DNA of 63,998 bases, filler included, from Stramenopiles sp. TOSAG23-2 (lineage: Eukaryota), in the NCBI GenBank assembly GCA_900128395.1. It is 5 parts of 5 records of this genome, joined end to end, with 100 filler letters (N's around TTAATTAATTAA, not from the genome) between each part and the next. Parts side by side here need not be neighbours in the genome. Positions count along the whole stretch, not along the records: positions 39,670 to 52,658 come from LT649822.1; 4 more parts are not named here. One strand, given 5' to 3'. The notes under the pieces are model-generated. The model made no database searches. It saw only the letters and a program-made list of their open reading frames with translations, and was not told the origin of the DNA. The position numbers and the translations under genes are program-made. Numbering within the stretch: the first letter of the stretch is position 1; each line of letters starts with the position of its first letter. Positions 13,190 to 52,758 of this stretch are shown one piece after another.

Positions 13190-13289
13190 NNNNNNNNNNN
13201 NNNNNNNNNNNNNNNNNNNNNNNNNNNNNNNNNTTAATTAATTAANNNNNNNNNNNNNNNNNNNNNNNNNNNNNNNNNNNNNNNNNNNN
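13190..13289. other. Artificial contig linker
   Basis: 44 N + TTAATTAATTAA (stops in all six frames) + 44 N. Confidence 0.99.
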
Positions 13290-26467: not shown

Positions 26468-26567
26468 NNNNNNNNNNNNNNNNNNNNNNNNNNNNNNNNN
26501 NNNNNNNNNNNTTAATTAATTAANNNNNNNNNNNNNNNNNNNNNNNNNNNNNNNNNNNNNNNNNNNN
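26468..26567. other. Artificial contig linker
   Basis: 44 N + TTAATTAATTAA + 44 N. Confidence 0.99.
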
Positions 26568-36900: not shown

Positions 36901-39569
36901 ATTTCAAGTGCCATATCAACTGCTCGTTTAATTTTAAGACAAGTAACCATTCTTAATAACTCTCTTCCTCCTGAAAGATCCTGTGCGTCAGAATTGTCAT
37001 TTAAATTATCAAGATTTTTTGAAAGCATCAAGCTTGTATATAGTGTTGGGTATGTTCTAACAAATATAGGATGTTGTGCTATCTCTTTAATTTTTTCGTC
37101 AGATATCAATTTTCTTAATTTTAGATCATTTGCTACTTCTCTGATACCGGACTCAAATGTCTCTAACGTATCTTTCTTTATTTCATCTTTTAAATAAGTT
37201 GGTCTGTTTTCATTAAGCTGTTGAACCCGTGAAGTTGTACCTTCTACAATTTCATCTGCCTCTTTTAGTTCTACCGCACTTTTTAATTGGCCTTTCTCTT
37301 CGCTACAATAAAACGATATTTCTAATGGATCAGACGAAACATTACCAATTCTTACAAGTTGATTAAGCCACTTCTGCAATATATCTTTGATTTGCGGGTA
37401 CACATGATCTGGAAGAATCTTTTGAGCCCTTGATTCTATTTCCGTCGCGTCTAATACTGATGTAAGACGTTTTTTTTGGTTTAGCTCCTTTATAAGGTGC
37501 TCCATTTCTTTAAATTGCTGGGTGCTTTCAGATGCGGGAGAACCAGACGATGTTCCTCCAGTAGTACTATTCCGACACAATACATCTCGAAGTTTAGCCT
37601 TTAACTCCAAGGGCAATCGAGACATAGAAGCTAATAATCTAGTTATACCAAATTCTTTGATTTTTTCGTTGACTTCTTGAGCAGAAGATAAATCTCTTTC
37701 GCACATAGCAATCATTTGATGAACTGACTCTAACCCCACTCGCAAATAATTGTCACGCATAGCGTCTTGATCATTGACACCTGGAAAATCAATCAACTCA
37801 ATTGATTCACTTAATATTTCACTAGGTACCCATACAATTACACTTTTAATGAACATGGAAAATACAAAGTTACCACGTGTGCTAGTGTATTTTTGCAATA
37901 GTTCGCGTATATACATGCGATCTTCCATTTTATTTTCATTTTTAGTCAAGTAAACAAATGTCTTGTTATCAAATTTACTTAGTTCTGCAATGGTCTTGAT
38001 ATCACCAACGGTTTTCGGGAAATAATTTTCATCATCTGGAAGACGCGTTTCAATAAACGCTTCTTTCTTTTTAATACCTTCGGTAATGGCATGATACAAA
38101 ATAATGTATCGTTTATATTCTTTTGACGTGGGATCTGGGCCATTATTTAGATATTGCACTATTTTCTCCTTGATCTCTTCGATACTTTCATAAGTGATGG
38201 ACATTGTCCATTGATTATCATACCTCAATCTCGTTGCACAATTAGTAGTTGATCCACCTTGGCGTCCAGCTGGCAAAAGATAGCAATAATTTTTGAGATA
38301 ACGTCCTTTCGTTCCGGTTTCATGGAACTTTATCAAATCTTTTTGTGCTTTTTCTTCCGATTCCACCTCTGTTGGTGCACAAACTTCATTATACATCTTC
38401 TGGTCTGGTTCAACCAATGCAAAACCTTTTTTGCTTAATTTAGATGCTTTCTGCTGTATAAAAGCTTCCGCAGAGACGACAGATGATGTTGTGGCTGTTG
38501 TACTAGTCGTTGTCGTCGTAGTAGTAGTAGTTGTTGTCGTCGTCATCGTCGTGGTTGTTGAAGCATTGTTTTCAGCAGCATTAGTATTTATGTTATTTAT
38601 ACTTTCATCATTGTCTATATCGTATTCTTCTCGATAAATATCCATGATTTCATGAATAAATCTACTCTGTGCTTCCATGTCGTTGAGATTTTCATTTTCA
38701 TATAGATTTGGATTTTCTTGGCAAATCTCCTTTATTACCTTCTTTAAAGTTTGTTCAGAATGCTGTTTGCCATATTTACTTTGTGGGATTTCTCCTAACA
38801 TACATAGCATATTTAATAAATGACTCTTCCCGTCGTTATTTTTCCCTAGCAAGCCCACTCGTTTGTAACCAGAATTGGCCAACTCCTCTAAAAACATGTT
38901 GATGTGTTCCACTAGCGTAGCAGCCACGCCAAAATCCGCATCGCCGGTACTAGTACGTGTTTTCTGGAAGACCGCATTTTGATGTTGTCTCAAATGACGT
39001 TTCACATTTTCTAATATACTTTTAAGTCTTTCAGTGTAATTATCTTCTAACCCACTGTCATTTCGAGGGCCAATACCAAGCGAATGAAGGCGAATTAGTG
39101 TAGCCCTTTCTTCGATTGTTCTTTTTGCAACAGCCGTGCCACCATCTGTTTCCTCCTCTGTTTCCTTCGTTTGTTCATTTTCTTCGTCTTCAAAATCTTT
39201 TTCAGCATATGTATCTGTTGCAAACAAATGAAATTCCATCAAGAAGTTTTTCACGATAGTTCCAATGGCAGTAGCTCTATTACTGATGTCTTTCCTAATT
39301 AGATTAGCGACGTCAAAAGTAAATTCAACACTTCTTCGACGTTCTTCGGGACTCCAACTATTAAAATTTAGAGCTTCAAACCTTGCTTTTTCTGCATCAC
39401 TTAAATTGTTATATAATGCAGCAGGCAAAAATTTTCTTGTTACATGAAGATACAATTCTACTAGATCGGATATACAAAAATGAATCCCATATCTATGGCA
39501 AACCCATGGATTCTGGCGATGCTTTGTCTCGTAGATTTCCACTAGCTTGTTGAGATTCCTGCGATGTTT
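33996..39569 (-). CDS. Giant dynamin-like GTPase (NUGGC/SLIP-GC-like) with helical region and possible degenerate OTU-like domain; 5'-truncated
   Basis: G1 GKNNDGKSHLLN, G2 STTNCATRLRY, G3 LIDFPGVND; frame open to the contig edge (KHRRNLNKLVEI). Confidence 0.75.
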   Translation of the reverse strand, partial: KHRRNLNKLVEIYETKHRQNPWVCHRYGIHFCISDLVELYLHVTRKFLPAALYNNLSDAEKARFEALNFNSWSPEERRRSVEFTFDVANLIRKDISNRATAIGTIVKNFLMEFHLFATDTYAEKDFEDEENEQTKETEEETDGGTAVAKRTIEERATLIRLHSLGIGPRNDSGLEDNYTERLKSILENVKRHLRQHQNAVFQKTRTSTGDADFGVAATLVEHINMFLEELANSGYKRVGLLGKNNDGKSHLLNMLCMLGEIPQSKYGKQHSEQTLKKVIKEICQENPNLYENENLNDMEAQSRFIHEIMDIYREEYDIDNDESINNINTNAAENNASTTTTMTTTTTTTTTTTTTSTTATTSSVVSAEAFIQQKASKLSKKGFALVEPDQKMYNEVCAPTEVESEEKAQKDLIKFHETGTKGRYLKNYCYLLPAGRQGGSTTNCATRLRYDNQWTMSITYESIEEIKEKIVQYLNNGPDPTSKEYKRYIILYHAITEGIKKKEAFIETRLPDDENYFPKTVGDIKTIAELSKFDNKTFVYLTKNENKMEDRMYIRELLQKYTSTRGNFVFSMFIKSVIVWVPSEILSESIELIDFPGVNDQDAMRDNYLRVGLESVHQMIAMCERDLSSAQEVNEKIKEFGITRLLASMSRLPLELKAKLRDVLCRNSTTGGTSSGSPASESTQQFKEMEHLIKELNQKKRLTSVLDATEIESRAQKILPDHVYPQIKDILQKWLNQLVRIGNVSSDPLEISFYCSEEKGQLKSAVELKEADEIVEGTTSRVQQLNENRPTYLKDEIKKDTLETFESGIREVANDLKLRKLISDEKIKEIAQHPIFVRTYPTLYTSLMLSKNLDNLNDNSDAQDLSGGRELLRMVTCLKIKRAVDMALEILEFLDKNEKGAIESNPWNDLKDISARTIKKAKKQNYYKTRKATIMKLHAAVVTSKKIFENAKKLRCQKNSKKIHWLKHEDEENGFAGFKSWCFKKITRDFKSDKGKKALMEGFNVDAAKPGKMQSWQMLSLRIFRCIFHAIDMEAVKERWNNITEYVVDTIIEQLKKLLNDLVDDWNFPDPTLEKLITNYLNNQGRRTLMAAAGKRFGMVQAKMQGKLKKMLKNKCYEEFQKHILMKKNIIQSLTTKESFMEKVDKNVKQFHDNAESWIGRVIKAYWKECVTITQERILLSTGSGSKFKNQACMKIVSNFLTTLTASNKTKQIIEKELEALRNNLKEEKKELEVFLKETKSTEEQSGSILEAKLLRLRISEDIISKYRNPKELSTTRNPPQLQNQISTSNVNDHLSLLKAKFNGTNATFVDYGWKKKLRKFRMMRMSDVSGSFFSVLSGLKNRFTQTVEEKDRATNIRKAVLCFLQWTFHDQRGGKQGSDFLKMFEQTFETWYTQAKEVGELEVNPKNVVPYILGYATLRNINIDILFSDGEIDSSVKCLRITPYPWTATKFKAEYSLKLTWDPVDRFCVVQKAFKARRAVRFQSTTSSCCYYDNEETHELFDHKNDEMIVDKPMATKKWNFQKKMVRSYTGVKTLPAYITIPEPERNDNNNNNFNVLNTTEDLSNFLKPSDGVFIYSSTQLRILTVDKVSSKAIITKEVPNLYFENIPMKIKKIDYRFLRYYKNMTLGDRKAIHVKFKREDRMTQDAKAIRELKFLNEKVKANQKIENENAKKEFEMLYKVDTFNNEYTQHRKKWFMEWSRINPQNSIAETAYSLGYAKMLKDGWMPVKGSPNLYRNQIYRELRCDLTSVPTWKTDDSSHEACRCTTMLCRQCRKDHSHLLTIINDFLMGAHKRKSITSSNSDKRQCRSAMMMPTPVDDENNNTDNSNNNSSASFRNGNNNRRANNGMEVDSDGGK

Positions 39570-39669
39570 NNNNNNNNNNNNNNNNNNNNNNNNNNNNNNN
39601 NNNNNNNNNNNNNTTAATTAATTAANNNNNNNNNNNNNNNNNNNNNNNNNNNNNNNNNNNNNNNNNNNN
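39570..39669. other. Artificial contig linker
   Basis: 44 N + TTAATTAATTAA + 44 N. Confidence 0.99.
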
Positions 39670-39986
39670 ATACGTCGTCAACAATAAAAACAATATCATT
39701 AGTACCCTTTATTGATGATTTTATTAATACAATGTATGATAAACTATCATCTAATAATGGCATTAATGGTGAGCTTACACCAGAAAACAAGAAAGATATT
39801 TTAGAACGAATGGAAGCAATAGTACACCATAAAGTGAGGCAACAAAGTAAACATTGTATCAAAACAGCGATAAAGCATGACTTTTCAAAACTGCCTGGTA
39901 TTGATGATATATGTGTAAAAACTATTATACCATATCTTGGTAACGATGGTCAAGCGTTAATGAATATGTTTGATACCCTTTATTGA
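39670..39986 (+). pseudogene. Truncated F-box-containing 5' unit of the ankyrin family
   Basis: Ends MNMFDTLY* at a 271-bp duplication junction (39703 vs 39974). Confidence 0.7.
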
Positions 39987-40002
39987 TGATTTTATTAATA
40001 CA

Positions 40003-40869
40003 ATGTATGATAAACTATCATCTAATAATGGCATTAATGGTGAGCTTACACCAGAAAACAAGAAAGATATTTTAGAACGAATGGAAGCAATAGTACACCA
40101 TAAAGTGAGGCAACAAAGTAAACATTGTATCAAAACAGCGATAAAGCATGACTTTTCAAAACTGCCTGGTATTGATGATATATGTGTAAAAACTATTATA
40201 CCATATCTTGGTAACGATGGTCAAGCGTTAATGAATATGTTTGGAAAAACAACAAAACGATTTTTAACTGTACCGACGATACGTGATGCATATAATAATA
40301 ATATTTCGAATTGTTATAGGAATGTTTTGAATCGCTTGAACGATCGTTATGAAACTGAATTTCCAGAAGGCACGCCATTGGTATGTGCATGTGAGGCAGG
40401 ACGTTTTGAGGATGTGAAATTATTTATTACATGCATGAAGGGTATTAATAATATGACATTGAGAGAACACGTGAATCAAGTCGGTAAAGATAGTGAAGGT
40501 GATGATATGACACCTTTAATGATAGCTGCATATGAAGAACATTTCCAAGTAGTTCAATATTTAATTGAACGAGGTGAAGCTGATCCTAATATTGCACGTA
40601 GTGATGGATGTAATGCATTACATTATGCAGCACGTAATAACAGAACGAGTACTGAGTTGATTGAGTTGTTATTAACTCATATGTCTCTTGATAGTATTAA
40701 TAAGAAGGACTGGGCGGAATACACTCCCCTGGACTGGGCATATCGTAATAATCATAGTCCAATTCACCAAGAGATCGTTGCACTTATACGTTCAAAAGGT
40801 GGAAAAGCAAATCAATATGATGCAAATGGTAGAGATGTAGGAATAGGTAATGGTGATTTAAATGATTAA
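40003..40869 (+). CDS. F-box + ankyrin repeat protein, copy A
   Basis: FSKLPGIDDICVKTIIPYL...LMNM..TTKRF F-box-like; TPLVCAC, TPLMIAA, NALHYAA, TPLDWA ankyrin repeats. Confidence 0.8.
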   Translation: MYDKLSSNNGINGELTPENKKDILERMEAIVHHKVRQQSKHCIKTAIKHDFSKLPGIDDICVKTIIPYLGNDGQALMNMFGKTTKRFLTVPTIRDAYNNNISNCYRNVLNRLNDRYETEFPEGTPLVCACEAGRFEDVKLFITCMKGINNMTLREHVNQVGKDSEGDDMTPLMIAAYEEHFQVVQYLIERGEADPNIARSDGCNALHYAARNNRTSTELIELLLTHMSLDSINKKDWAEYTPLDWAYRNNHSPIHQEIVALIRSKGGKANQYDANGRDVGIGNGDLND

Positions 40870-41447
40870 AACGCTCTTAAGAAGAGTGTGCGTGGTGCGT
40901 GGTGTGGTTTTTGTGAGAGAGATAAACAACGATTGAAACTAAACTTTGTTATTTGTTAAATATATATCATTAATTCACTAATTGCAAATTAAATTCTAGA
41001 ATATTATATTTTAAATCTGTCTCCCTAGAAAAATACGAGTACGTACTTTTTGAACTTTCATCCTTCTTTGATCCTCCAATCTATTTGCTGTATTGGAATT
41101 TATATTTGATAATATTTCAAATTGAAAATGAAGGATGAAAGTTCAAAAAGTACGTACTCGTATTTTTCTAGGGAGACAGATTTAAAATATAATATTCTAG
41201 AATTTAATTTGCAATTAGTGAATTAATGATATATATTTAACAAATAACAAAGTTTAGTTTCAATCGTTGTTTATCTCTCTCACAAAAACCACACCACGCA
41301 CCACGCACACTCTTCTTAAGAGCGTTTTAATCATTTAAATCACCATTACCTATTCCTACATCTCTACCATTTGCATCATATTGATTTGCTTTTCCACCTT
41401 TTGAACGTATAAGTGCAACGATCTCTTGGTGAATTGGACTATGATTA
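40749..41447. repeat. Long inverted repeat 1 (~318-bp arms, 63-bp spacer 41067-41129)
   Basis: Gene 3' end and downstream DNA are followed by their reverse complement. Confidence 0.9.
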
Positions 41448-41572
41448 CGATAATATGCAAGATCTAATACGGTTTCTCCTTTAATCATTTCATTGATGCA
41501 AATGGTAATGAAGTAGGACTCGGTAATGGTGATTTAAATGATTAACAATACAATCAAAGGAAGACGTCTAGA

Positions 41573-41989
41573 ATGAAAGATAAGAAGGGCAGTGAAGAGG
41601 AAGAGACTCCTCTGGACGTGGCATATCGATATAATGATAGTCCACTTCGCCAAGAGATCGTTGCACTTATACGTTCAAAAGGTGGAAAAGCAAATTATTA
41701 TGATGAAAATGGTAGACGTGTAGGAATAGGTAATGGTGATTTAAATGTTGGACGCCATGCAGTAGTAATAGGATCCGATATAGAAGTCGTACGTGAAGCA
41801 TTAACTAAGATTGATGATATCAATGAAATGATTAAAGGAGAAACCGTATTAGATCTTGCATATTATCGTAATCATAGTCCAATTCACCAAGAGATCGTTG
41901 CACTTATACGTTCAAAAGGTGGAAAAGCAAATCAATATGATGCAAATGGTAGAGATGTAGGAATAGGTAATGGTGATTTAAATGATTAA
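41573..41989 (+). pseudogene. Ankyrin 3' cassette (two terminal repeats, no F-box)
   Basis: MKDKKGSEEEETPLDVAY...GNGDLND. Confidence 0.65.
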
Positions 41990-42617
41990 AACGCTCTTAA
42001 GAAGAGTGTGCGTGGTGCGTGGTGTGGTTTTTGTGAGAGAGATAAACAACGATTGAAACTAAACTTTGTTATTTGTTAAATATATATCATTAATTCACTA
42101 ATTGCAAATTAAATTCTAGAATATTATATTTTAAATCTGTCTCCCTAGAAAAATACGAGTACGTACTTTTTGAACTTTCATCCTTCTTTGATCCTCCAAT
42201 CTATTTGCTGTATTGGAATTTATATTTGATAATATTTCAAATTGAAAATGAAGGATGAAAGTTCAAAAAGTACGTACTCGTATTTTTCTAGGGAGACAGA
42301 TTTAAAATATAATATTCTAGAATTTAATTTGCAATTAGTGAATTAATGATATATATTTAACAAATAACAAAGTTTAGTTTCAATCGTTGTTTATCTCTCT
42401 CACAAAAACCACACCACGCACCACGCACACTCTTCTTAAGAGCGTTTTAATCATTTAAATCACCATTACCTATTCCTACATCTCTACCATTTGCATCATA
42501 TTGATTTGCTTTTCCACCTTTTGAACGTATAAGTGCAACGATCTCTTGGTGAATTGGACTATGATTACGATAATATGCAAGATCTAATACGGTTTCTCCT
42601 TTAATCATTTCATTGAT
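41819..42617. repeat. Long inverted repeat 2 (~368-bp arms, spacer 42187-42249), 1120 bp after repeat 1
   Basis: Same arms and spacer orientation as repeat 1. Confidence 0.9.
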
Positions 42618-42692
42618 GCAAATGGTAATGAAGTAGGACTCGGTAATGGTGATTTAAATGATTAACAATACAATCAAAGGAAGACGTCTAGA

Positions 42693-43109
42693 ATGAAAGA
42701 TAAGAAGGGCAGTGAAGAGGAAGAGACTCCTCTGGACGTGGCATATCGATATAATGATAGTCCACTTCGCCAAGAGATCATTGCACTTTTACGTTCAAAA
42801 GGTGGAAAAGCAAATTGTTTGGATGAAAATGGTAGAGATGTAGGAGAAGGTAATGGTGATTTAAATTTTGAACGGCATGCAGTAGTAATAGGATCCGATA
42901 TAGAAGTCGTACGTGAAGCATTAACTAAGATTGATGATATCAATGAAATGATTAAAGGAGAAACCGTATTAGATCTTGCATATTATCGTAATCATAGTCC
43001 AATTCACCAAGAGATCGTTGCACTTATACGTTCAAAAGGTGGAAAAGCAAATCAATATGATGCAAATGGTAGAGATGTAGGAATAGGTAATGGTGATTTA
43101 AATGATTAA
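42693..43109 (+). pseudogene. Ankyrin 3' cassette variant
   Basis: As 41573 but IIALL...CLDENGRDVGEG...FERH. Confidence 0.65.
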
Positions 43110-43600
43110 AACGCTCTTAAGAAGAGTGTGCGTGGTGCGTGGTGTGGTTTTTGTGAGAGAGATAAACAACGATTGAAACTAAACTTTGTTATTTGTTAAA
43201 TATATATCATTAATTCACTAATTGCAAATTAAATTCTAGAATATTATATTTTAAATCTGTCTCCCTAGAAAAATACGAGTACGTACTTTTTGAACTTTCA
43301 TCCTTCATTTTCAATTTGAAATATTATCAAATATAAATTCCAATACAGCAAATAGATTGGAGGATCAAAGAAGGATGAAAGTTCAAAAAGTACGTACTCG
43401 TATTTTTCTAGGGAGACAGATTTAAAATATAATATTCTAGAATTTAATTTGCAATTAGTGAATTAATGATATATATTTAACAAATAACAAAGTTTAGTTT
43501 CAATCGTTGTTTATCTCTCTCACAAAAACCACACCACGCACCACGCACACTCTTCTTAAGAGCGTTTTAATCATTTAAATCACCATTACCTATTCCTACA
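43076..43600. repeat. Long inverted repeat 3 with the spacer (43307-43369) in the opposite orientation
   Basis: Spacer attttcaatttg...ggaggatcaaa is the reverse complement of the spacer in repeats 1 and 2. Confidence 0.9.
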
Positions 43601-43746
43601 CGTCTACCATTTTCATCATAATAATTTGCTTTTCCACCTTTTGAACGTAAAAGTGCAATGATCTCTTGGCGAAGTGGACTATCATTATATCGATATGCCA
43701 CGTCCAGAGGAGTCTCTTCCTCTTCACTGCCCTTCTTATCTTTCAT
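43567..43746 (-). pseudogene. Inverted single-repeat ankyrin cassette (59 aa)
   Basis: MKDKKGSEEEETPLDVAYRYNDSPLRQEIIALLRSKGGKANYYDENGRRVGIGNGDLND*. Confidence 0.7.
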
Positions 43747-44019
43747 TCTAGACGTCTTCCTTTGATTGTATTGTTAATCATTTAAATCACCATTACCGAG
43801 TCCTACTTCATTACCATTTGCATCAATGAAATGATTAAAGGAGAAACCGTATTAGATCTTGCATATTATCGTAATCATAGTCCAATTCACCAAGAGATCG
43901 TTGCACTTATACGTTCAAAAGGTGGAAAAGCAAATTATTATGATGCAAATGGTAATGAAGTAGGACTCGGTAATGGTGATTTAAATGATTAACAATACAA
44001 TCAAAGGAAGACGTCTAGA

Positions 44020-44445
44020 ATGAAAGATAAGAAGGGCAGTGAAGAGGAAGAGACTCCTCTGGACGTGGCATATCGATATAATGATAGTCCACTTCGCCAA
44101 GAGATCATTGCACTTTTACGTTCAAAAGGTGGAAAAGCAAATTGTTTGGATGAAAATGGTAGAGATGTAGGAGAAGGTAATGGTGATTTAAATTTTGAAC
44201 GGCATGCAGTAGTAATAGGATCCGATATAGAAGTCGTACGTGAAGCATTAACTAAGATTGATGATATCAATGAAGTGATTAATAGAGAAACTGTATTAGA
44301 TCTTGCATATCAATGTAATCATAGTCCAATTCAACAAGAGATCATTGCACTTTTACGTTCAAAAGGTGGAAAAGCAAATTGTCATAATGCAAATGGTAGT
44401 TTGGTAGGACCCGGTAATGGTGATTTAAATGATTTAAATGATTAA
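44020..44445 (+). pseudogene. Ankyrin 3' cassette variant
   Basis: Last repeat VINRETVLDLAYQCNH...CHNANGSLVGPG. Confidence 0.65.
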
Positions 44446-44936
44446 AACTCTTTATATTTATTTTATAAATTCTACAACTGTACATTTTCCGTCTCCCAGG
44501 TGTCGTCTCTCCTCCTCTCTTTGACATGGGTCTTCTATTAATAAATTATATGGCATTGTTGTTGTTGTTGATTCTTCTTCACAATATTCGTTGAAAATTG
44601 AATGAATTTGAATGACTAAAAAGAACTATAAAATAACATAATAGATAGGATTGAAAAAGAGAAATATATATATACACAACATACAACATATAACTAAACA
44701 ACATGGCATCATTAACTATTAACCCACCACCTGCAAAAAGACTGAAGACATCAGCAACGAATAATAATAATACGTCGTCAACAATAAAGCATTGTTGTTG
44801 TTGATTCTTCACAATAATTTGTTGAAAATTGAATGAAATTGAATGACGAAAAAGAACTAAAAGAAGATAATAGATAGGATTGAAAAAGAGAAATATATAT
44901 ATATATATATATACATACAACATATATCTAAACAAC

Positions 44937-45323
44937 ATGGCATCATTAACTATTAACCCACCACCTGCAAAAAGACTGAAGACATCAGCAACGAATAATA
45001 ATAATACGTCGTCAACAATAAAAACAATATCATTAGTACAATTTATTGATGATTTTATTAATACAATGTATGATAAACTATCATCTAATAATGGCACCAA
45101 TGGTGAGCTTACACCAGAAAACAAGAAAGATGTTTTAGAACGAATGGAAGCAATAGTGCATCTTAAAGTGAGGCAACAAGATAGACATTGCATCAAAACA
45201 GCAGCGATAAAGCGTGACTTTTCAAAACTACCTGGTATTGATGATATATGTGTGAAAACTATTATACCATATCTTGGTAACGATGGTCAAGCGTTAATGA
45301 ATATGTTTGATACCATTTATTGA
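44937..45323 (+). CDS. NLS + F-box-only truncated unit of the ankyrin family
   Basis: MASLTINPPPAKRLK...LPGIDDICVKTIIPYL...MNMFDTIY*. Confidence 0.6.
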   Translation: MASLTINPPPAKRLKTSATNNNNTSSTIKTISLVQFIDDFINTMYDKLSSNNGTNGELTPENKKDVLERMEAIVHLKVRQQDRHCIKTAAIKRDFSKLPGIDDICVKTIIPYLGNDGQALMNMFDTIY

Positions 45324-45339
45324 TGATTTTATTAATACA

Positions 45340-46206
45340 ATGTATGATAAACTATCATCTAATAACGGCATTAATGGTGAGCTTACACCAGAAAACAAGA
45401 AAGGTGTTTTAGAACGGATCGAATCTATAATACATTTTAAAGTGATAAAGCAACAAAGTAAACATTGTATCAATACAGTGGTAAAGCATGACTTTTCAAA
45501 ACTACCTGGTATTGATGATATATGTGTAAAAACTATTATACCATATCTTGGTAACGATGGTCAAGCGTTAATGAATATGTTTGGAAAAACAACAAAACGA
45601 TTTTTAACTGTACCGACGATACGTGATGTATATAATAGTAATATTTCGAATTGTTATGAAAATGTTTTGAATCGCTTGAACGATCGTTATGAAACTGAAT
45701 TTCCAGAAGGCACGCCATTGATATTTGCATGTGAGGCAGGCATTTTTGAGGATGTGAAATTATTTATTACATGCATGAAAGGTATTAATAATATGACATT
45801 GAGAGAAAACGTGAATCAAGAAGGTAGAAATAGTGATGGTGAGGATGATACACCTTTAATTGCAGCTGCATGGGGCGAACATTTCCAAGTAGTTAAATAT
45901 TTAATTGAACAAGGTGAAGCTGATCCTAATATTGCAAATAGTGATGGATTGAATGCATTACATTATGCAGCACGTAATAACAGAACGAGTACTGAGTTGA
46001 TTGAGTTGTTATTAACTCATATGTCTCTTGATAGTATTAATAAGAAGGACGACGAGGAAGAGACTCCCCTGGACGTGGCATATCGATATAATGATAGTCC
46101 ACTTCGCCAAGAGATCATTGCACTTATACGTTCAAAAGGTGGAAAAGCAAATTGTTATGATGAAAATGGTAGTTGGGTAGGAGCAGGTAATGGTGATTTA
46201 GTATGA
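45340..46206 (+). CDS. F-box + ankyrin repeat protein, copy B
   Basis: Same scaffold as copy A with different loop residues. Confidence 0.8.
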   Translation: MYDKLSSNNGINGELTPENKKGVLERIESIIHFKVIKQQSKHCINTVVKHDFSKLPGIDDICVKTIIPYLGNDGQALMNMFGKTTKRFLTVPTIRDVYNSNISNCYENVLNRLNDRYETEFPEGTPLIFACEAGIFEDVKLFITCMKGINNMTLRENVNQEGRNSDGEDDTPLIAAAWGEHFQVVKYLIEQGEADPNIANSDGLNALHYAARNNRTSTELIELLLTHMSLDSINKKDDEEETPLDVAYRYNDSPLRQEIIALIRSKGGKANCYDENGSWVGAGNGDLV

Positions 46207-46334
46207 TTAAAACTCTTTATACTTATTTTGTTAATTCTACAAACTGTATATTTTCCGTCTCCCAGGTGTCGTCTCCTCCTCTCTCTGACATGGGTCTCTA
46301 TTAATAAAATAATAATGGCATTGTTGTTGTTGTT

Positions 46335-46586
46335 GATGCAGTAATTACAGGATCAGATATAGAAGTCGTACGTGAAGCATTAACTAAGATTGATGATATC
46401 AATGAGATAATGTGTGATGATGGAGAAACTGTATTAGATCTTGCATATAAATATAATGATAGTCCAATTCAACAAGAGATCATTGATCTTATACGTTCAA
46501 AAGGTGGAAAAGCATACAGATATGATGCAGATGGTACGAGTAGATGGTAGTTGGGTAGGAGAAGGTTATGGTGAATTAAATGATTA
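46335..46586 (+). pseudogene. Ankyrin terminal-repeat fragment
   Basis: DAVITGSDIEVVREALTKIDDINEIMCDDGETVLDLAYKYNDSPIQQEIIDLIRSKGGKAYRYDADG, then frame disruption. Confidence 0.65.
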
Positions 46587-46839
46587 AAACTCTTTATACT
46601 TATTATAAATTAATACAAACTGTATATTTTCCGTCTCCCAGGTGTCGTCTCCTCCTCTCTTTGACATGGGTCTTCTATTAATAAATAATGGCATTGTTGT
46701 TGTTGTTGATTCTTCTTCACAATAATTTGTTGAAAATTGAATGAAATTGAATGACGAAAAAGAAGTAAAAGAATATAATAGATACATCGAAAAAGAGAAA
46801 TATATATATATATATATATACAACATACAACTAAACGAC

Positions 46840-48158
46840 ATGGCATCATTAACTATTAACCCACCACCTGCAAAAAGACTGAAGACATCAGCAACGAATG
46901 ATAATAATACGTCGTCAACAATAAAAACAATATCATTAGTACCATTTATTGATGACTTTATTAATACAATGTATGATAAACTATCATCTAATAATGGCAC
47001 CAATGGTGAGCTTACACCAGAAAACAAGAAAGATGTTTTAGAACGGATCGAATCTATAATACATTTGAAACTGATAAAGCAACAAAGTAAACATTGTATC
47101 AATACAGTGGTAAAGCGCGACTTTTCAAAACTACCTGGTATTGATGATATATGTGTAAAAACTATTATACCATATCTTGGTAACGATGGTCAAGCGTTAA
47201 TGAATATGTTTGGAAAAACAACAAAACGATTTTTAACTGTACCGACAATACGTGATGCATATAATAGTAATATTTTGAATCCGTATTTTGAAAAGGTTTT
47301 AAATGCTTTGAACGATCGTTATGAAACTGAATTTCCAGAAGGCACGCCGTTGGTCTGTGCATGTGAGGAAGGGCGTTTTGAGGATGTGAAATTATTTATT
47401 ACATGCATGAAGGGTATTAATAATATGACATTGAGAGAAAACGTGAATCAAGAAGGTAGAAATTTATTACATGCATGAAGGGTATTAATAATATGACATT
47501 GAGAGAACACGTGAATCAAGTCGGTAAAGATAGTGATGGTGAGGAGGAATGTACACCTTTAATGGCAGCTGCAGATGGCGAACAATTCCAAGTAGTTCAA
47601 TATTTAATTGAACAAGGTGAAGCTGATCCTAATATTGCAAATAGTGATGAAGAGAATGCATTACATTATGCAGCACAAAATAACAAAAAGAATACTGAGT
47701 TGATTGAATTGTTATTAACTCATATGTCTCTTGATAGTATTAATAAGAAGCAGTCCGGGGGATCCACTCCCCTGGACTTGGCATATCTTCGTAATGATAG
47801 TCCAATTCGCCAAGAGATCATTGCACTTTTACGTTCAAAAGGTGGAAAAGCAAATTGTTATGATGCAAATGGTAGAAATGTAGGAATAGGTAATGGTGAT
47901 TTAAATGTTAGACGACATGCAGTAATTACAGGATCCGATATAGAAGTCGTACGTGAAGCATTAACTAAGATTGATGATATCAATGAAGTGAATGATATTA
48001 ATGGAGAAACTGTATTAGATCTTGCATATCGTCGTCATAATGATAGTCCAATTAAACAAGAGATCATTGATCTTATACGTTCAAAAGGTGGAAAAGCAAA
48101 TCAATATGATGCAAATGGTAGAGATGTAGGAATAGGTAATGGTGATTTAAATGATTAA
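46840..48158 (+). CDS. Full-length NLS + F-box + ankyrin gene, copy C, split by a 68-bp duplication/frameshift near 47462
   Basis: ORFs 46840..47478 and 47475..48158; atttattacatgcatg... repeated at 47394 and 47462. Confidence 0.75.
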
Positions 48159-48737
48159 AACTCGCTTTACTTCGTACTTTAATTATAATTAAATACATAT
48201 CAGAAGTGTAAAATTATTATAACTTAGATTTTTTTAACCATCAATTTATAATTATATTAATTAATGCATAACATATAATTTATTTTTTAATTTACTCATG
48301 ATAATTCCTACTCTCCAGAAAGAATACAATAACTGAGACAAATCTATCTCACTAAACTGAAAGATGGACAATGAATCGTAACATTGCGATAGAGTTCATT
48401 GAAATCCACAGAGTGTGCCAATATTTTTAAGATACAAAAATATTGGTGGAGGTAAATAGATGCAATTAACGCATTATATGCATCAATTGAAAACTGTTGT
48501 ATTGTTCAAAGGTGTGTGATACATCGTACTGTGGTAGAGTATATCATGATCCTTCTTGCATATACACTTTAAAGTGCAAATTTATAATTATATAATACCA
48601 AAAATATAAAACTGTACATTTTCCGTCTCTCATATTTTATAGGTTTCTCTTCTTTCATCCTAATCCCTTTTTGCGAAACAACACTTCTTCTCTTTCTTTC
48701 TTTTTTCAGAGAATCTCACAGCAGCAACAACCACGTT

Positions 48738-49959
48738 TTATGGAAATTTCAAATGCAACAAGTCAATCCAATATTCTTCTTGTTGTTGATTGATAAAATA
48801 TGCTGAAACTCTGCTTCGTCTTCGTCGTTTTGCTCTCGCATTATTATTACTATTATTCCCACCATTCTCATGATCACCATTAACAAAATAATAATTTTGA
48901 TCATTTCCACAATCAATTAAAAATCGTTTCACACTTTTATATCGTTGCATAATTTGAAAACTACTACATACGTTAAAGCATGGATATTGGTTTAAAAAGA
49001 GCTCTTGCTTCGTTTCAACATTGGGATCATACTTGATGCCATCGTCGTCGTCATCATCATCACACGAACCATTGCCATACGCATCGCCACAAAACATTTG
49101 TGCGTTAAGATCATCACTTTTGAAACAAATGCATTTACATAACATAGCAACAGATGTATAATAAATTAATTGAACATTTTGTACCGTGCTTAAAGAATGT
49201 ATTAATCGTTGTAATTCCATCGTTTGTTGATAATAATAACTACGTTGACCAGTATTACTTGTTAAATTTTCTGCATTTATATAGACATCAACACGTTTGA
49301 ATTTTTGAAACAAGGCAATGATATGATGAAATATATATTTTGCTTCTGCATATATTGCATTAATAACAACTATTGTATTAAATGGATTTAAAACAATTGA
49401 TTCATTATTTTGTAATATATTTGTCGTACGCTCATGTATGATACAATTCATTTTAGATTCTAAATAACGTAAGACATCTAATCCCCATGAAATAAAATGA
49501 TCCGGATTGACAAAACAAATACGACGTCGTTGTTGCCGAGTATTGTTGTTACGATTGTTTTCAATTGCAGTAGTAGTACTTCTATTACTAGTTGATAATT
49601 GGAATGTACGATTATCATTATTATTATTATTATTACTCATGTTATAATTTCCAAAATTAATATTTACTTGTTTATATGCATTGTTGAACGTTTGTATATT
49701 TTTTGATAATAATACATGAAGTTTATCAGAAAGATTAATTGTTGACGCAATTTCTCTGGCTACATTTGCATTCTTTAATTGTTGACGACGTCGATCAATA
49801 TCACTATCTCGTTTTTTCGTTATTCTTAACATTTTATTACTAGTATTATTTGCATTATTACCATTTTGAACTCGAGAACGTTTATGTGGCAATTTAATAT
49901 TTGTAAATGCATTGTTGGTATTTCCATTTTGATGATTTCCTACTCGTATCCCACCTTTA

Positions 49960-49998
<39 letters not shown>

Positions 49999-50344
49999 GG
50001 TGATCGTTTTACTTTTTTCCTGATGCCAACCTCAACATTATCAGTACTATTATCATTATTATTATTGTCACTTTCATTCATCATCATCATCGTTGTCATA
50101 CTATAGGACATTTTACGTTTATTATTACTTCTACTACCTCTTGGTTGTTTTGTATAATGTACAAATACTTTGATAAAGTTGTAATTGTTTTCGAGTATAT
50201 AACGATTGCTAAGTATAAAATCAATTGATATATTGTACCATTTTCCATAAAAAAATACATCATATTCATAAACACGTTTAACTTTTTTTCTTCTTCTTTT
50301 TTTTTTGGTTGATTTGTTGATCATTGATTTGTTGTCTTCAAAAG

Positions 50345-50380
<36 letters not shown>

Positions 50381-51896
50381 TACTACTATCATCATCATCA
50401 TCGTTACTCATTATTTTATGATACAATAGTGGAAGGAACATTGATTTTTTGTAGCGTTTTGTGTTTAATACTTTACGATTGTTGTTCTTGCTGTTGCTAT
50501 ATTTATGATTACTATTATTATTATTACCTATATCATCACAACCTTTATTTGAAAGCATTACATTAAAATAATCAATCTTTTCCATTTCTTCTAATTGTTT
50601 AAATGCAATTTTTTTCACTTTATTATGTTTACGATTAATAAATGATTCTACAAAGCGAGTATGAAACACGGAATCAACAAAACGTCGTTTTACATTGCAA
50701 TATTTCATATTTGAACGAGTGATTTGATCTTGTCGCGAGGTCATTACACTTGTTGGTACAACGTTGATATCACATATTTGTTTTGTTACATTTGAAATAG
50801 CATTTGCAACAAATGTTGTTGGTTTATTATAATTTAAATCAATATCATCATCACTATCATTATTATGACTCTTCCTATTATCATTATATTTTACATGATT
50901 AATATTTGTAATATGATTTTCATTATTATTATTATAAATACTAATTCCATACGGTAGAGTACATAATTCATATTTTGTAAATGATTGATTCATCGTCTTT
51001 ATTATTGTATTCGTTTTTTCTTTTTGTTTTGTAACATTTTTCGCTATTTTAATATGTTGTAACGTATTATATGGTCTAGTAACTCGATGTAATGGTTTAC
51101 TTTGATAACGAAATTTACTGACTTGAAAATTCAAATTCACATGATCGATTCTTTGTACAATTATTTTTTGACGTACATTTGCAATTTCTTGTTGGATAAA
51201 TAAATATTTATCATCAATATGATCTAAATGCGATGGTATTGGTAATACAAATTGATGATATTGTAATTTATTGTTTTTGATAGATGATGATGATGGCGGT
51301 GAAATATCGTATTTCTCATATTTATTTTGATACGTTATCAATGCTTGTTCGTTTTTATTATAATGTTTCATTGTATTTTCAACAAAATTTGTAAATAATA
51401 ATTTAGATAAAGACGATGCATTTTTTGTTTTATCATTTTTTTTTCGACGATTATGATGAATATAATTATTATTACATTCCTCGTGAAATCGTTTCTTTAA
51501 TATCGTTGGTACGTCGATATAATTCAAAATAATTGGTTTCTTTGCAACGTTTTTTGGTTTTATAATAGTTGGTTCGTTTTGTTTGGTATTGAATTTCAAT
51601 TCTTTACTAAATGAATTTAATGCTTTTTTTTTACGTAATAATAATAGATCATCATCGATATTCTTGTTAACATTTGTATCGATATTATTATTATTAATAT
51701 GATTAAATAATGGTAAAAATGATATTTTACGTGTTGTTAGTACATCACCGTTGGTATTCGAAAGACTTGGAACAATAGTTTTCATCTTGCTTATTTGTTG
51801 TAAATTTTTTTCATCATTTGTATTCACATGTTCAAAATATAAATTGATATTTGATGTATTAAAAAAGAATGTCATTATGTTTCGCGTGTGTAACAA
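48738..51896 (-). CDS. SHOC1: SHOC1/Zip2-like meiotic crossover protein (C-terminal XPF/ERCC4-like + HhH); start codon uncertain
   Basis: C-terminal LRYLESKMNCIIHER...IVLNP...LFQKFKRVDVYI...ETKQELFLNQYPCFNVCSSFQIM resembles the SHOC1 E.FL..FP.IN...A..I motif. Confidence 0.55.
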
Positions 51897-52401
51897 TATC
51901 GTATATACAGAGTACTACTACTACTGCAGAGAGAATAGTCGTCAAAATTTCTAATTTCTATCTATATAATGTATACTCAATCAATATATCTCGTTGTATA
52001 ATCAATATAATGTATCGTAATTTCTAATTTCTATCTATCTATATATAGTGTATAATCAATCAATATATCTTAATATAATAATGTATCGTAATTTTTTTTT
52101 TTCTGGTGATTGTTTTCGATCGTCCGTAATTTCCAAGCAAGCATATAATATAAAATGCAATAATATGCGATATGATAATAAATGATATATGGGAATGATG
52201 TAATTTTACGATATATATATATGTCACAAAACTTTCTCTCAATCGATCTATGATCTATGATCTATATCGAATAATTCAATTTTCAAATCAATTTTCATCC
52301 CCATATACACATAGTGAATAGTGTTAAAATGTACATTACAAGTTTTGACACGCCGCGCGGTGCAATTATATTTTTTGTAAAGTGAGTGAGAGAGGTCCTC
52401 A

Positions 52402-52658
52402 CCCTATCAATAGTTCAAGTGACTATACATATAATTTTATACTTGAATGTCGAAATGAGACTCAGCTAAAGTAAAATGTTGAAAGGCCTCTGTCCATGCT
52501 AATTTCTATACAGTGCTATTTCCATATAATATCTCATCCCTATCAAATATCAAATGACTATACGTATAATTTATACTTGAATGTCGAAATGAGACTCAGC
52601 AAATAAAATGTTGAAAGGCCTCTGTCCATGCTAATTTCTATACAGTGCTATTTCCATA
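52402..52658 (+). repeat. ~125-bp direct repeat at the contig end
   Basis: tgactatac...gaaatgagactcagc...gctatttccata twice. Confidence 0.9.
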
Positions 52659-52758
52659 NNNNNNNNNNNNNNNNNNNNNNNNNNNNNNNNNNNNNNNNNN
52701 NNTTAATTAATTAANNNNNNNNNNNNNNNNNNNNNNNNNNNNNNNNNNNNNNNNNNNN
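52659..52758. other. Artificial contig linker
   Basis: 44 N + TTAATTAATTAA + 44 N. Confidence 0.99.

Follow-up and report, generated by a model that had tools for sequence, protein, structure and literature searches.

Fungal NLR (STAND) receptors carry highly conserved ANK, TPR, or WD repeats, according to the excerpted text of Dyrka et al. 2014 (PMC4986451). As set out in that excerpt, their repeat framework is nearly identical in DNA, positive diversifying selection acts on a few positions in each ANK repeat, and the selected positions lie on the concave face (inner helices and β-hairpin); concerted evolution and recombination have been invoked, and non-self recognition is presumed. The ankyrin (ANK) protein family described here, from the genome assembly of Stramenopiles sp. 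TOSAG23-2, resembles these receptors in all of these respects, and the likeness drawn by a first-pass annotation of the DNA holds against the excerpt (PMC4986451). The fungal receptors differ, as excerpted there, in that conservation is found between the repeats within one gene, with repeat-number polymorphism, and in that the repeats are preceded by an effector domain and a NACHT or NB-ARC domain. In the present family, in contrast, whole modules are conserved between separate small genes and the repeats of any one module are distinct; none of the listed relatives shows a NOD domain.

FEM1B and the ASB proteins are ubiquitin-ligase receptors in which, as in Legionella AnkB and the poxvirus ANK/F-box proteins, the ANK repeats form the substrate-binding part and a short helical box serves as the ligase adaptor. 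AnkB combines an N-terminal F-box with ANK repeats (PMC2790608, excerpt), and the poxvirus proteins are cited in an excerpt of PMC5871332. The present family shares with this group FEM1B among its top fold matches and one relative with a RING finger, but the window proteins gave no curated F-box, PRANC, or SOCS-box match, and the established ANK ligase receptors, encoded by single genes or small families, are not known to be hypervariable at the codon level. In lamprey variable lymphocyte receptors and in pseudogene-templated antigenic variation, genes are assembled or converted somatically. A diversified repeat-protein binding face and arrays of incomplete cassettes adjoining functional genes are points in common, whereas the process is somatic there and no sign of somatic change is seen here, where 52–56 of 58 cassettes are unique, so that stored cassettes are seldom reused in the present sample.

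DARPins bind through randomised positions on their concave surface (review PMC8229355, excerpt). The "genomic accordion" of Bodo saltans virus comprises 148 ANK copies at the genome ends with 4–17 repeats each, and the excerpted report describes many tandem ANK genes, very recent direct and inverted duplications carrying ANK coding sequence, and coding sequences disrupted by recombination, all of which recall the present locus, and proposes an arms race (PMC5871332). Those genes are viral, whereas the present family resides among ordinary cellular genes on many contigs and no family relative was found in the viral contigs searched; fixed-position hypervariability is not among the features described in that excerpt (PMC5871332).

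Layout and assembly state of the array

The array lies at positions 39670–48158 of the window (the whole stretch of DNA analysed, 63,998 nt) and contains three gene-like units (A, B, and C), 12 partial ANK module matches (nine on the plus strand and three on the minus strand), and one 5′ fragment. It begins at an artificial contig join, one of four identical joins of this type in the window, and its local layout may therefore be partly an artefact.

39570–39669, no strand: artificial contig join (44 N, TTAATTAATTAA, 44 N)
39670–52658: contig carrying the array
39670–39972, plus: unit A, N-domain segment copy 1 (codons 23–125 of the full-length relative P0001)
39963–40869, plus: unit A, N-segment copy 2, full ANK module, and stop
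40716–44200, no strand: palindrome nest and a 1120-bp unit present three times
41330–41557, minus: partial module (last repeat and cap), inverted
42450–42677 and 43570–43758, both minus: counterparts of the 41330–41557 module
41561–41989, plus: 3′ fragment (repeat 3, cap, fourth repeat, stop; ORF 41573–41989)
42681–43109 and 44008–44445, with a shorter piece at 43762–43994: counterparts of the 41561–41989 fragment
44660–44788, plus: 5′ fragment (upstream region and first 29 codons, including PPPAKRLK)
44937–45323, plus: unit B, start codon and N-segment copy 1, with a stop at the duplication junction
45307–46206, plus: unit B, N-segment copy 2 and full ANK module
46332–46583, plus: degenerate fourth-repeat fragment with 3′ UTR
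46840–47478, plus: unit C 5′ part, complete N-domain (160 aa) and first capping repeat
47475–48158, plus: unit C 3′ part (repeats 1–3, cap, fourth repeat, stop)

The first-pass annotation had counted three near-complete genes, but none is an intact reading frame as assembled. Unit A, which is truncated by the contig start, has an ORF at 39970–40869 with the module order capping repeat, three repeats, and cap, and its two N-segment copies (99% identity) result from a 271-bp tandem duplication that shifts the frame. The corresponding duplication in unit B is 277 bp, with a junction identical to that of unit A, and the frame of unit C is broken by a 68-bp chimeric duplication (47394/47462). The duplication junction was not found at any of the loci holding the matching gene region, including the six closest relatives. 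PPPAKRLK was correctly read at the N-terminus and stands at three of them (ATG at 44703, 44937, and 46840), the 5′ fragment being a 231–234-bp tandem duplicate of the unit B start. The annotation was also right that partial copies exist, although its "at least five" falls short of the 12 partial modules and one 5′ fragment.

Within the ~3.5 kb of 40716–44200, the palindromes are 98–100% identical, their arms comprise a shared 3′ UTR of 332–371 nt on both sides of a 57-nt spacer, which is inverted in the third copy of the 1120-bp unit, and the 3′ gene fragments are arranged tail-to-tail. In the likely source runs, the region falls apart into contigs of only 124–182 nt. As it stands in the assembly, the locus is a cluster of pseudogenes and gene fragments, or else in part an artefact.

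The family itself extends well beyond this locus, with 428 proteins at E ≤ 0.001 and intact relatives of 317–412 aa. Metagenome contigs yielded 101 related stretches, and 33 of the 80 that were kept share one assembly prefix. A poly-A metatranscriptome run yielded 319 aligned contigs, 142 of them at least 99% alike; family sequence is present in poly-A RNA contigs for parts of the family.

Variable codons and the ankyrin binding face

Alignment of the DNA of units A, B, and C reveals a framework that is nearly identical, including silent sites, with differences clustered in short blocks. At 21 hypervariable codons, 27–31 of 63 nt differ, whereas elsewhere 15–22 of 375–453 nt differ (Fisher p ≤ 1e-13), and the same test with 17 independently defined DARPin-library positions gives p ≤ 2e-7. 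Alignment and counts bear out the annotated pattern of shared, nearly identical DNA differing by whole codons at fixed positions, and the hairpins (DSEGDDM, NSDGEDD, and DSDGEEEC), the KDWAEY, KDDEEE, and KQSGGS segments, the residues after AA or AY, and the five cap variants quoted in support of it are all present in the translations.

Pfam Ank_2 matches all three units (unit A, E 1.8e-20; unit B, 4e-18; unit C, 4.4e-23). The AlphaFold2 model of P0001 has a mean pLDDT of 79.3, with residues 150–330 above 93, and the best solved matches to its residues 154–333 are DARPins (Z 16–17, rmsd about 2 Å), followed by FEM1B and gankyrin; in this model, the variable residues map to the hairpin and the end of helix 1. 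Entropy across 113 modules from 109 proteins is maximal at ANK positions 1/2/3/5, 10, and 13/14 of the three repeats and in the cap. The DARPin library positions reportedly given by Binz et al. in 2003 are 2, 3, 5, 13, 14, and 33; 13 of the 17 most variable columns fall within the 17-position a-priori DARPin set (hypergeometric p = 1.3e-10; Mann–Whitney p = 2.7e-7). The variable columns coincide with the canonical ANK target-binding face, in agreement with the annotation, which had placed the hypervariable residues on the hairpin and first helix.

Each variable column holds 13–22 distinct codons and 12–17 amino acids among 58 sequences, with enrichment in Tyr, Asn, Arg, Gly, Asp, and Trp. The family thus resembles DARPin libraries in its fold, its variable positions, its fixed framework, and residues rich in Tyr, Trp, Arg, and Asp. 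It differs from them in being natural, in having longer, length-variable hairpins, and in varying also at positions 1, 10, and 16 and in the C-terminal cap loop.

Our own parsimony and Nei–Gojobori counts, made on a FastTree tree of recombining paralogues and not with a codon-site likelihood model, give a pooled dN/dS of 1.99 at the a-priori positions of 58 DNA modules from related marine contigs (binomial p = 1.7e-10) and 1.07 at the other 96 repeat columns. Replacement divergence at the binding-face positions greatly exceeds silent divergence in the framework. Close pairs (402 with framework identity ≥0.90) are typified by L021/L022, with one silent change per 91 framework sites and 15.2 replacement changes per 42.5 sites at a-priori positions. 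Raw divergence at the first, second, and third codon positions is 0.571, 0.527, and 0.313 at variable codons and 0.064, 0.062, and 0.050 elsewhere. Amino-acid-changing substitutions are in excess over silent ones at the variable codons, and the lag of the third position there is expected of amino-acid selection and not of uniform hypermutation. Framework divergence is equal across codon positions, with a dN/dS of about 1, an unexpected result for a scaffold under constraint, which may reflect pseudogenes or very young copies in the sample.

At syntenic loci in related assemblies, 0 of 20, 9 of 21, 7 of 21, 15 of 20, and 16 of 20 variable codons differ, compared with merely 3–22 of 468 other nucleotides; mismatches number 0–6 per 150 bp in the flanks and 10 and 19 in the repeats. 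As short-read assembly of a family with an identical framework can thread chimeric paths, some of these differences between apparent orthologues are possibly artefacts.

The N-domain, the basic leader, and ubiquitin ligases

The N-domain is conserved at 45 columns that are invariant among 17 sequences, and its invariant core (LPGIDD...IIPYL...NMF...KRF) also occurs in more distant ANK proteins. The annotated F-box-like motif LP..D.....I..YL is real and shows no variation among the 17 sequences aligned, although its spacing was one residue off. The annotation had named a missing F-box HMM match as counting against its proposal, and none was obtained with the window N-domain at E ≤ 10 (0 of 3 and 0 of 10), nor at E ≤ 1 or E ≤ 0.1. 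Pfam yielded no match for this domain, and sequence searches of the PDB gave no relevant match. Modelled alone, the domain has an unusable pLDDT of 37.8; in the full-length model, three helices follow the "LP" at a pLDDT of 58–72.

An F-box connection is hinted at indirectly by a sister subfamily, in which Pfam F-box-like or F-box gives sub-threshold matches at the equivalent spot (4 of 10 sequences, and 6 of 12 and 3 of 12 in a second search). The best of these reaches E 0.002 and 18.3 bits against a cut-off of 24.3, and every F-box-like match lies under the curated cut-off and spans just profile positions 8–26 of 47. A profile–profile comparison weakly links the sister F-box-like region to the window motif (types 2–1) with P = 0.006 over 17 columns at a probability of 6%, and types 2 and 3 are linked with P = 2e-4; types 3 and 4 gave no F-box match (0 of 6). 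One of 20 long relatives, P0142, joins the family ANK module to a C-terminal RING-H2 finger, a fusion that could be a merged gene call. The leading candidate partner of the invariant N-domain, put forward tentatively, is an SCF-type ubiquitin ligase engaged through a divergent F-box-like link.

The annotation had gone further, proposing that every member is an SCF substrate receptor, in which an F-box would engage Skp1 and the ANK face would capture foreign (e.g., viral) proteins for ubiquitination and degradation in the nucleus. The placement of the conserved motif N-terminal to the repeat domain is the usual F-box layout, and the helices after "LP", the sister-subfamily matches, the profile links, the RING-fused relative, and the fold match to FEM1B, a cullin-ligase receptor, are consistent with it. 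Nevertheless, this general form of the proposal is doubtful, as the window N-domain itself lacks F-box and PDB matches, the matches that exist are partial and below cut-off, types 3 and 4 have none, the type 1–type 2 link is of low probability, and confidence in the N-domain model is only moderate. That the tagged proteins would be viral we purely infer, and the family was not found in viral contigs.

The leader preceding the N-domain has its first 17 residues in common between two otherwise unrelated N-domain types. A basic K-K/R-x-K/R motif, read by eye, is common across subfamilies (14 of 15 leaders of types 1/2 and 1 of 1 of type 4, but 0 of 5 of type 3), and by pattern match it is a putative NLS. 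The annotated reading of PPPAKRLK as an NLS is supported as regards a shared basic motif, and its import role is presumptive.

Origin and role of the diversity

This large multigene family probably encodes a germline repertoire of ANK binders that are targeted to the nucleus and evolve under diversifying selection. The region would be a tandem array in which members, broken members, and fragments of this family of small (about 320–410 aa) intracellular ANK proteins lie together, in what appears to be an AT-rich, intron-poor marine protist. The diversity would arise from point substitutions fixed by diversifying selection, and the uniformity of the framework from recent duplication and short-tract exchange between paralogues. 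Against this reading, identity states at the variable codons show nearly no linkage (r about 0.1) and no decay over distance, which simple shuffling of conversion tracts does not predict.

A dedicated process, either targeted mutagenesis of binding-face codons or templated micro-conversion from an archive of broken copies, is improbable as the source of this diversity, although several observations would fit it. The variable codons are near saturation (codon identity 0.06–0.16) while framework silent sites differ by 1–7%, and adjacent variable codons are statistically independent. At syntenic loci with flanks about 1–3% diverged, 7–9 of 21 variable codons have changed, several at all three bases, one L021 tract is nearest to a paralogue (2 nt) and not to its syntenic partner, and 12 fragments adjoin the gene units in the window. 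However, divergence is lower at third codon positions than at the first two, the spectrum of one-, two-, and three-base differences between moderately close pairs agrees with independent point changes, and in one syntenic pair whose flanks are similarly diverged 0 of 20 variable codons differ, so that the rate of change is not constant. In addition, most cassettes are unique, the ORFs scanned revealed no reverse transcriptase or other mutator gene, and the window fragments may be assembly artefacts.

The proteins could alternatively be offensive, nucleus-targeted effectors introduced into the cells of a host or prey, with the arms race seen from the attacker's side. Expanded, fast-evolving ANK families occur, according to excerpts, in a giant virus that infects a marine flagellate, where direct and inverted duplications accompany them (PMC5871332), and in intracellular bacteria (PMC2790608), and the leader carries an NLS-like motif; but the N-terminus (MAS...PPPAKR) has no signal peptide evident by inspection, the neighbouring genes are ordinary cellular ones, nothing marks the organism as a parasite, and the viral contigs gave no match, which makes this very improbable. 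Hardly credible is a non-adaptive origin, in which unconstrained surface residues drift on a recently duplicated framework and much of the window is assembly error: the broken units at a contig edge, the palindromes and tandem joins of the kind that amplification or assembly chimeras typically show (inverted forms make up more than 85% of MDA chimeras; PMC1855051, excerpt), the short source-run contigs, and the framework dN/dS of about 1 would suit it, but drift cannot lift replacement divergence at chosen codons more than tenfold over the silent divergence of those genes, the variable columns recur across 113 proteins of several independent origins and coincide with the binding face, and intact relatives are known.

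In the germline repertoire that we favour, each protein consists of a short basic-motif leader, a lineage-specific helical N-domain, and a DARPin-like ANK module, whose framework is nearly identical in DNA between paralogues while about 20 codons at the β-hairpin tips, first helices, and C-cap are near-randomised. The leader may act as a nuclear-import signal, and the invariant N-domain as a common handle coupling every binder to one downstream partner. We infer the function of the family purely from its evolutionary pattern: the variable face would bind many different, fast-changing ligands, which would make the family a germline-encoded recognition repertoire. With dozens of near-identical small ANK genes varying mainly at the expected target contacts, it resembles a natural counterpart of a designed-binder library.

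Variable codons in a fixed ankyrin framework

The array at 39670–48158, with its units A, B and C and partial ankyrin (ANK) modules of one gene family, consists of copies that are near-identical in DNA, third codon positions included, and are broken in the copy alignment by short blocks of whole-codon differences. The peptide variants quoted in the first-pass annotation are all found in translations of the window, and the differences fall at fixed codons, as had been claimed. Between units A, B and C, 27–31 of 63 nucleotides differ in the 21 hypervariable codons (ANK hairpin, helix-1 and cap codons), compared with 15–22 of 375–453 in the rest of the module (Fisher p ≤ 1e-13). The contrast holds (p ≤ 2e-7) when 17 a-priori positions are preset from the DARPin library design, a list that we take to be the randomised DARPin positions of Binz et al. 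2003. The sequence observation of a frozen framework with variable codons is thus confirmed, and is statistically overwhelming.

The same pattern extends across the family. Entropy in 113 near-full modules from 109 proteins is near zero in most columns and very high in a few, namely the hairpin before TPL/NAL, helix-1 positions 10, 13, and 14 of each repeat, and three cap positions. The search for related metagenome loci found 101 relatives, 80 of which were kept as a DNA source; the loci and the window together gave 136 module matches, 75 of them full-length, and the 58 that were stop-free and unique were analysed. Thirteen of the 17 most variable columns lie within the 17 DARPin-equivalent a-priori positions (hypergeometric p = 1.3e-10), and the description of the family as a natural DARPin-like library is apt. 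Framework codons are identical across the nine paralogues shown, and each variable column holds 13–22 codons and 12–17 amino acids among the 58 sequences. Residues at the variable codons are rich in Tyr (11.6%), Trp (6.7%), Asn, Arg, Gly, and Asp, and almost devoid of Pro; amino-acid diversity over the 21 columns is in slight excess of that expected from random codons of the same composition (299 observed vs 272 expected).

The module itself is clearly ankyrin. Pfam ankyrin models (PF12796/PF00023) match units A, B, and C at E-values of 1.8e-20 to 4.4e-23, and Ank_2 scores 73.7, 66.2, and 82.1 bits, respectively, against a cut-off of 27.3. A capping repeat comes first, followed by three repeats and by an unusual cap loop at the C-terminus, and longer members have a fourth repeat. 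An AlphaFold2 model of the intact full-length relative P0001, built on a 90-sequence alignment, has a mean pLDDT of 79.3, which rises above 93 over residues 150–330, where the repeats reside. DARPins are its best match among solved structures (Z 16–17, rmsd about 2 Å), followed by FEM1B and gankyrin. As modelled, the family proteins have stacked helix-turn-helix ANK repeats with β-hairpins, and the variable residues are predicted to sit at the end of helix 1 and, in the hairpin, between its two bridge residues. DARPins bind through their randomised concave surface, as a review states (PMC8229355).

A protein database search returned 428 relatives at E ≤ 0.001, many from ocean surveys, including intact proteins of 317–412 residues with 71–83% identity. 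Family genes occur singly or in pairs on many contigs amid unrelated genes, and 33 of the 80 retained loci share one assembly prefix. In RNA, 8–12% of the sampled words turn up in six runs belonging to four studies, and in one poly-A RNA run 319 contigs match, 142 of them at ≥99%; family sequence is therefore present in poly-A RNA libraries, which does not imply transcription of these particular copies. A giant-virus origin was rejected as far as the scan of viral contigs reached, as it matched 25 stretches, none of which encodes a relative. The open reading frames flanking family genes in the related loci look cellular.

Selection and mode of diversification

At the a-priori positions, parsimony counts on a tree put the pooled dN/dS at 1.99 (binomial p = 1.7e-10), compared with 1.07 at the other 96 repeat columns and 1.20 for the whole module; these are our own approximate counts on recombining paralogues rather than a codon-site model, and columns 56 and 57 (a hairpin insertion) belong to neither class, here or in the column comparison.

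Divergence is concentrated at the variable codons even between close relatives, and 402 pairs with a framework identity of at least 0.90 differ at most of them. The locus pair L021/L022 has one silent difference per 91 silent sites in the framework, and 15.2 replacement differences per 42.5 sites in the 17 a-priori codons. In close pairs, the raw divergence at the first, second, and third codon positions is 0.571, 0.527, and 0.313 in the variable codons vs 0.064, 0.062, and 0.050 elsewhere, and the numbers of one-, two-, and three-base codon differences follow a near-binomial spectrum. Because the third position lags and the spectrum is near-binomial, these data are consistent with numerous point substitutions that became fixed because of their effect on the amino acid, and not with uniform hypermutation or wholesale codon replacement.

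Related assemblies allow the changes to be followed at syntenic positions. Five comparisons were usable, two of seven having been dropped as mis-registered (301 of 444 and 66 of 459 non-variable differences); 0/20, 9/21, 7/21, 15/20, and 16/20 variable codons are changed in them, compared with only 3–22 of 468 other nucleotides. Such between-assembly differences are provisional, since short-read assemblers can thread wrong paths through an identical framework. Over 5 kb of aligned L021 and L022, the flanks show 0–6 mismatches per 150 bp, and the repeat region shows 10 and 19. One changed tract in L021 has a paralogue as its closest sequence (2 nt), which points to short-tract conversion.

Cassette shuffling is not, in this sample, the chief origin of the diversity, because neighbouring variable codons are nearly unlinked (identity at one barely predicts the next, r about 0.1, with no distance decay) and 52–56 of the 58 cassettes are unique. 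A diversity-generating retroelement is not supported: the 18 window frames scanned contain no reverse transcriptase domain, the template-repeat search being non-exhaustive, and each of the four bases occurs at every position of the variable codons, which also change in length, unlike the adenine-specific pattern of such elements.

The array and its assembly

Four identical artificial joins chain contigs of about 13 kb, and the window is not one piece of a chromosome; genes flanking a join are not neighbours, so that gene context read across joins is invalid. The array begins at base 1 of its contig (39670), which ends at 52658 and carries a single other gene. The remaining contigs encode ordinary eukaryotic proteins in long intron-free frames with about 25–38% G+C, among them an RPE65-type oxygenase, a tyrosinase with a C2 domain, glucosidase II beta, a CTLH-RING protein, and a B-family DNA polymerase. 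Between 39670 and 52658, scans detected no Rfam family and no tRNA.

Features of the array, mapped against the gene of P0001 (412 residues), and of its surroundings
13190–13289, 26468–26567, 39570–39669, 52659–52758: artificial joins, four, identical (44 N, TTAATTAATTAA, 44 N)
33996–39542, minus strand: intron-free frame of 1848 residues with a threonine run; weak dynamin_N match only (Pfam)
39670–40869: unit A, first 22 codons missing, with a 271-bp tandem duplication of an N-domain segment
44660–44788: promoter and 29-codon fragment
44937–46206: unit B, with a 277-bp duplication at the same junction as in unit A, its two copies diverged
46332–46583: decayed fragment of a fourth repeat
46840–48158: unit C, interrupted by a 68-bp duplication, the first copy resembling B and the second A
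48738–51896, minus strand: intron-free, Asn-rich frame of 1052 residues without a Pfam match, the sole other gene on the array contig

None of the three units has an intact frame as assembled. The contig start truncates unit A by 22 codons, and the frame of this unit is shifted by the duplication, the copies of which are 99% alike. The 3.5-kb stretch between A and B is a 1120-bp unit present three times, with palindromes whose arms (332–371 nt, 98–100% complementary) enclose a 57-nt spacer, the third copy having it in inverted orientation; the palindromes bear tail-to-tail 3′ fragments of family genes. A repeat finder counts twelve occurrences of a 171-nt 3′ segment and five of an N-terminal segment, and the family profile gives 16 module matches on the array contig, three near-full and the rest partial, three of them on the minus strand.

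Whether these rearrangements belong to the genome or to its assembly was judged from related loci, reads, and independent contigs. The A/B duplication junction is absent from all of the loci that hold this gene region, namely the closest relatives L001–L006 together with L044, which show a normal gene arrangement. Two runs, probably the source, account for the greater part of the sequence (0.69 and 0.64 of the words sampled). Their listed contigs measure only 124–182 nt, which a branched high-copy family would lead one to expect; the read-based check of the joins, limited to such short contigs, neither confirms nor refutes the duplication junctions and palindromes, and bins 42006–42589 show no depth, repeated parts having been passed over. 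The alignment of an 89-nt RNA contig ends at 45309, the final base ahead of the unit B junction, with three letters left unaligned. In an independent metagenome from seawater, a 416-nt contig spans 40845–41132 (3′ UTR and spacer), leaving 123 letters unaligned where the inverted arm would start. Both contigs are weak hints against the joins as assembled. According to one report, more than 85% of 475 chimeras from multiple displacement amplification were inverted, the commonest artefact (PMC1855051), which bears on the present case only if the source DNA was amplified. On the other side, units A and B share their junction yet differ in the variants flanking it, which argues that at least the A/B duplication of the N-domain segment is real and older than the duplication of A and B themselves. 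The local arrangement in the window is broken and, in part, suspect.

Two local features of the DNA were also observed. Directly 3′ of unit C lies a short, very high-copy element (48138–48400), over which the summed word depth reaches 27,766 and 74,041 in the two main DNA runs, and many contigs break at 48274/48275, 48311–48314, and 48333. Tracts of (TA)n or TATATA stand 20–60 nt upstream of family start codons, both in the window (44879–44927 and 46786–46830) and in the related loci L020, L021, L025, L033, L036, L039, and L042, where unrelated genes have them upstream too, and such tracts may characterise promoters of the organism in general. Reads seem to be cut at them.

The N-terminal domain and the place of the family

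The window-type N-domain, the conserved region of 160 residues before the ANK module, is narrowly distributed: a word-indexed search yields 15 proteins, and there are 19 when 1.84 billion representatives are scanned exhaustively. A 45-column block that includes LPGIDD...IIPYL...NMF is invariant in 17 sequences, and this core also occurs in more distant ANK proteins. Directly before the block, a variable patch within the N-domain helix lies at 47047–47118 (residues about 70–93 of the unit C N-domain), which may form a second specificity surface.

The F-box-like motif read into this domain by the first-pass annotation found no match to PF00646 or PF12937 at E ≤ 10 (0/3 and 0/10), and two further Pfam scans of the window N-domain likewise returned no F-box family. 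Sequences of solved structures gave six chance-level matches to the domain (E 0.4–1.8), none of them F-box proteins; searches of the same sequences with profiles gave no match for type 1 and only one histone match (E 0.23) for type 2, and a language-model atlas search with motif residues 88–150 yielded no usable match. Modelled alone, the domain is unusable (pLDDT 37.8). The full-length model predicts helices at 101–113, 117–126, and 129–133 after LPG, with a pLDDT of only 58–72; these would be compatible with an F-box fold, without testing it, and the full-length fold search was filled by ANK chains and thus left the N-domain unprobed.

At least four N-domain types, unrelated or distantly related, precede the same hypervariable module in loci L009–L067, and most share one MAS... 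leader at their start, an indication that the putative adaptor part is swapped as a module. Type 2, the commonest, shows partial F-box-like matches below threshold at one spot in 4 of 10 full frames; isolated type-2 domains show them in 6 of 12, at best E 0.002 and 18.3 bits against a cut-off of 24.3, with sub-threshold PF00646 matches in 3 of 12. Types 3 and 4 have none (0/6). Profile comparison aligns types 2 and 3 over 45 columns (P = 2e-4, probability 45%), aligns type 2 with the window type weakly over 17 columns (P = 0.006, probability 6%), and finds nothing between types 3 and 1. An F-box-like reading of the N-domain is tentative and somewhat unlikely.

Other domain combinations occur beside these types. 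Among the 20 longer relatives, one combines the family module with generic ANK repeats and has a RING-H2 finger at its C-terminus. In some predicted proteins, from the loci L057 and L058 (177–1268) and in P0145, a single frame runs from an unrelated upstream region into a type-2 N-domain and its ANK module; in P0145 this upstream region comprises a MYND finger and a GNAT-like part. Such frames are either genuine fusions or the product of gene calls that were merged.

The first 17 residues are common to two otherwise unrelated N-domain types. By eye, a K-K/R-x-K/R cluster is present in 14 of 15 type-1/2 leaders, in the single type-4 leader, and in none of five type-3 leaders, and in the window it is KRLK at residues 12–15. 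K-K/R-x-K/R is the consensus of the classical monopartite nuclear localisation signal, and the cluster is a putative nuclear-import signal on that basis. The proposed SCF/F-box, antiviral, and nuclear roles are plausible inferences, the F-box part having failed the direct sequence test.

Several known systems resemble the family in part. Fungal NLRs have five ANK positions under positive selection on the concave face (PMC4986451). The present family works like these NLR/STAND receptors but is not a member, since fungal NLRs contain a NOD (NACHT/NB-ARC) domain and the family has none: no NACHT/NB-ARC was detected in the window frames, the Pfam lists of the 120 near-length matches listed contain only ANK, and beyond ANK the 20 longer relatives contain only RING fingers, one MYND finger, and one PF02784 entry. 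Moreover, repeats within a fungal NLR of this kind are more than 85% identical, whereas repeats 1, 2, and 3 of the present family clearly differ by reading; here, conservation lies between separate small genes. ANK receptors of cullin ligases are alike in layout, but the family fails the F-box HMM test. The array also recalls the ankyrin accordion of a marine giant virus, for which PMC5871332 describes tandem, direct, and inverted duplications and disrupted genes, but the family is cellular. Among the papers listed, the relevant ones on hypervariable ankyrin families under diversifying selection all concern fungal NLRs, those on marine stramenopile single-cell genomics do not mention ankyrin, and those on ankyrin in heterotrophic flagellates comprise the giant-virus paper only; on these topics, we found no description of such a family in protists.

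In repeat-protein receptors, a fixed scaffold with hypervariable contacts is a hallmark of arms-race recognition, as in fungal NLRs, lamprey receptors, and plant resistance genes. Very little is known, to our knowledge, of how free-living marine protists recognise viruses, prey, or symbionts. The boldest reading is very improbable: a dedicated process, either codon-targeted mutagenesis or micro-conversion from neighbouring broken copies and fragments, would make the family an intracellular ankyrin counterpart of variable lymphocyte receptors in a free-living marine protist, with the invariant N-domain feeding captured targets to one ubiquitin-ligase pathway. Independently of that reading, the family supplies each genome with dozens of DARPin-like binders, all small and stand-alone, with an unusually clean contrast between a frozen framework and near-randomised contacts, and it is widespread in ocean metagenomes and present in metatranscriptomes; owing to this contrast and wide occurrence, it can be put forward as a candidate intracellular recognition repertoire that is concrete and open to testing. 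The family also amounts to a natural experiment on where in an ankyrin repeat variation is tolerated and advantageous, which bears on the engineering of binders, and should the invariant N-domain prove to act as a ligase adaptor, the family would constitute a natural library for targeted degradation.
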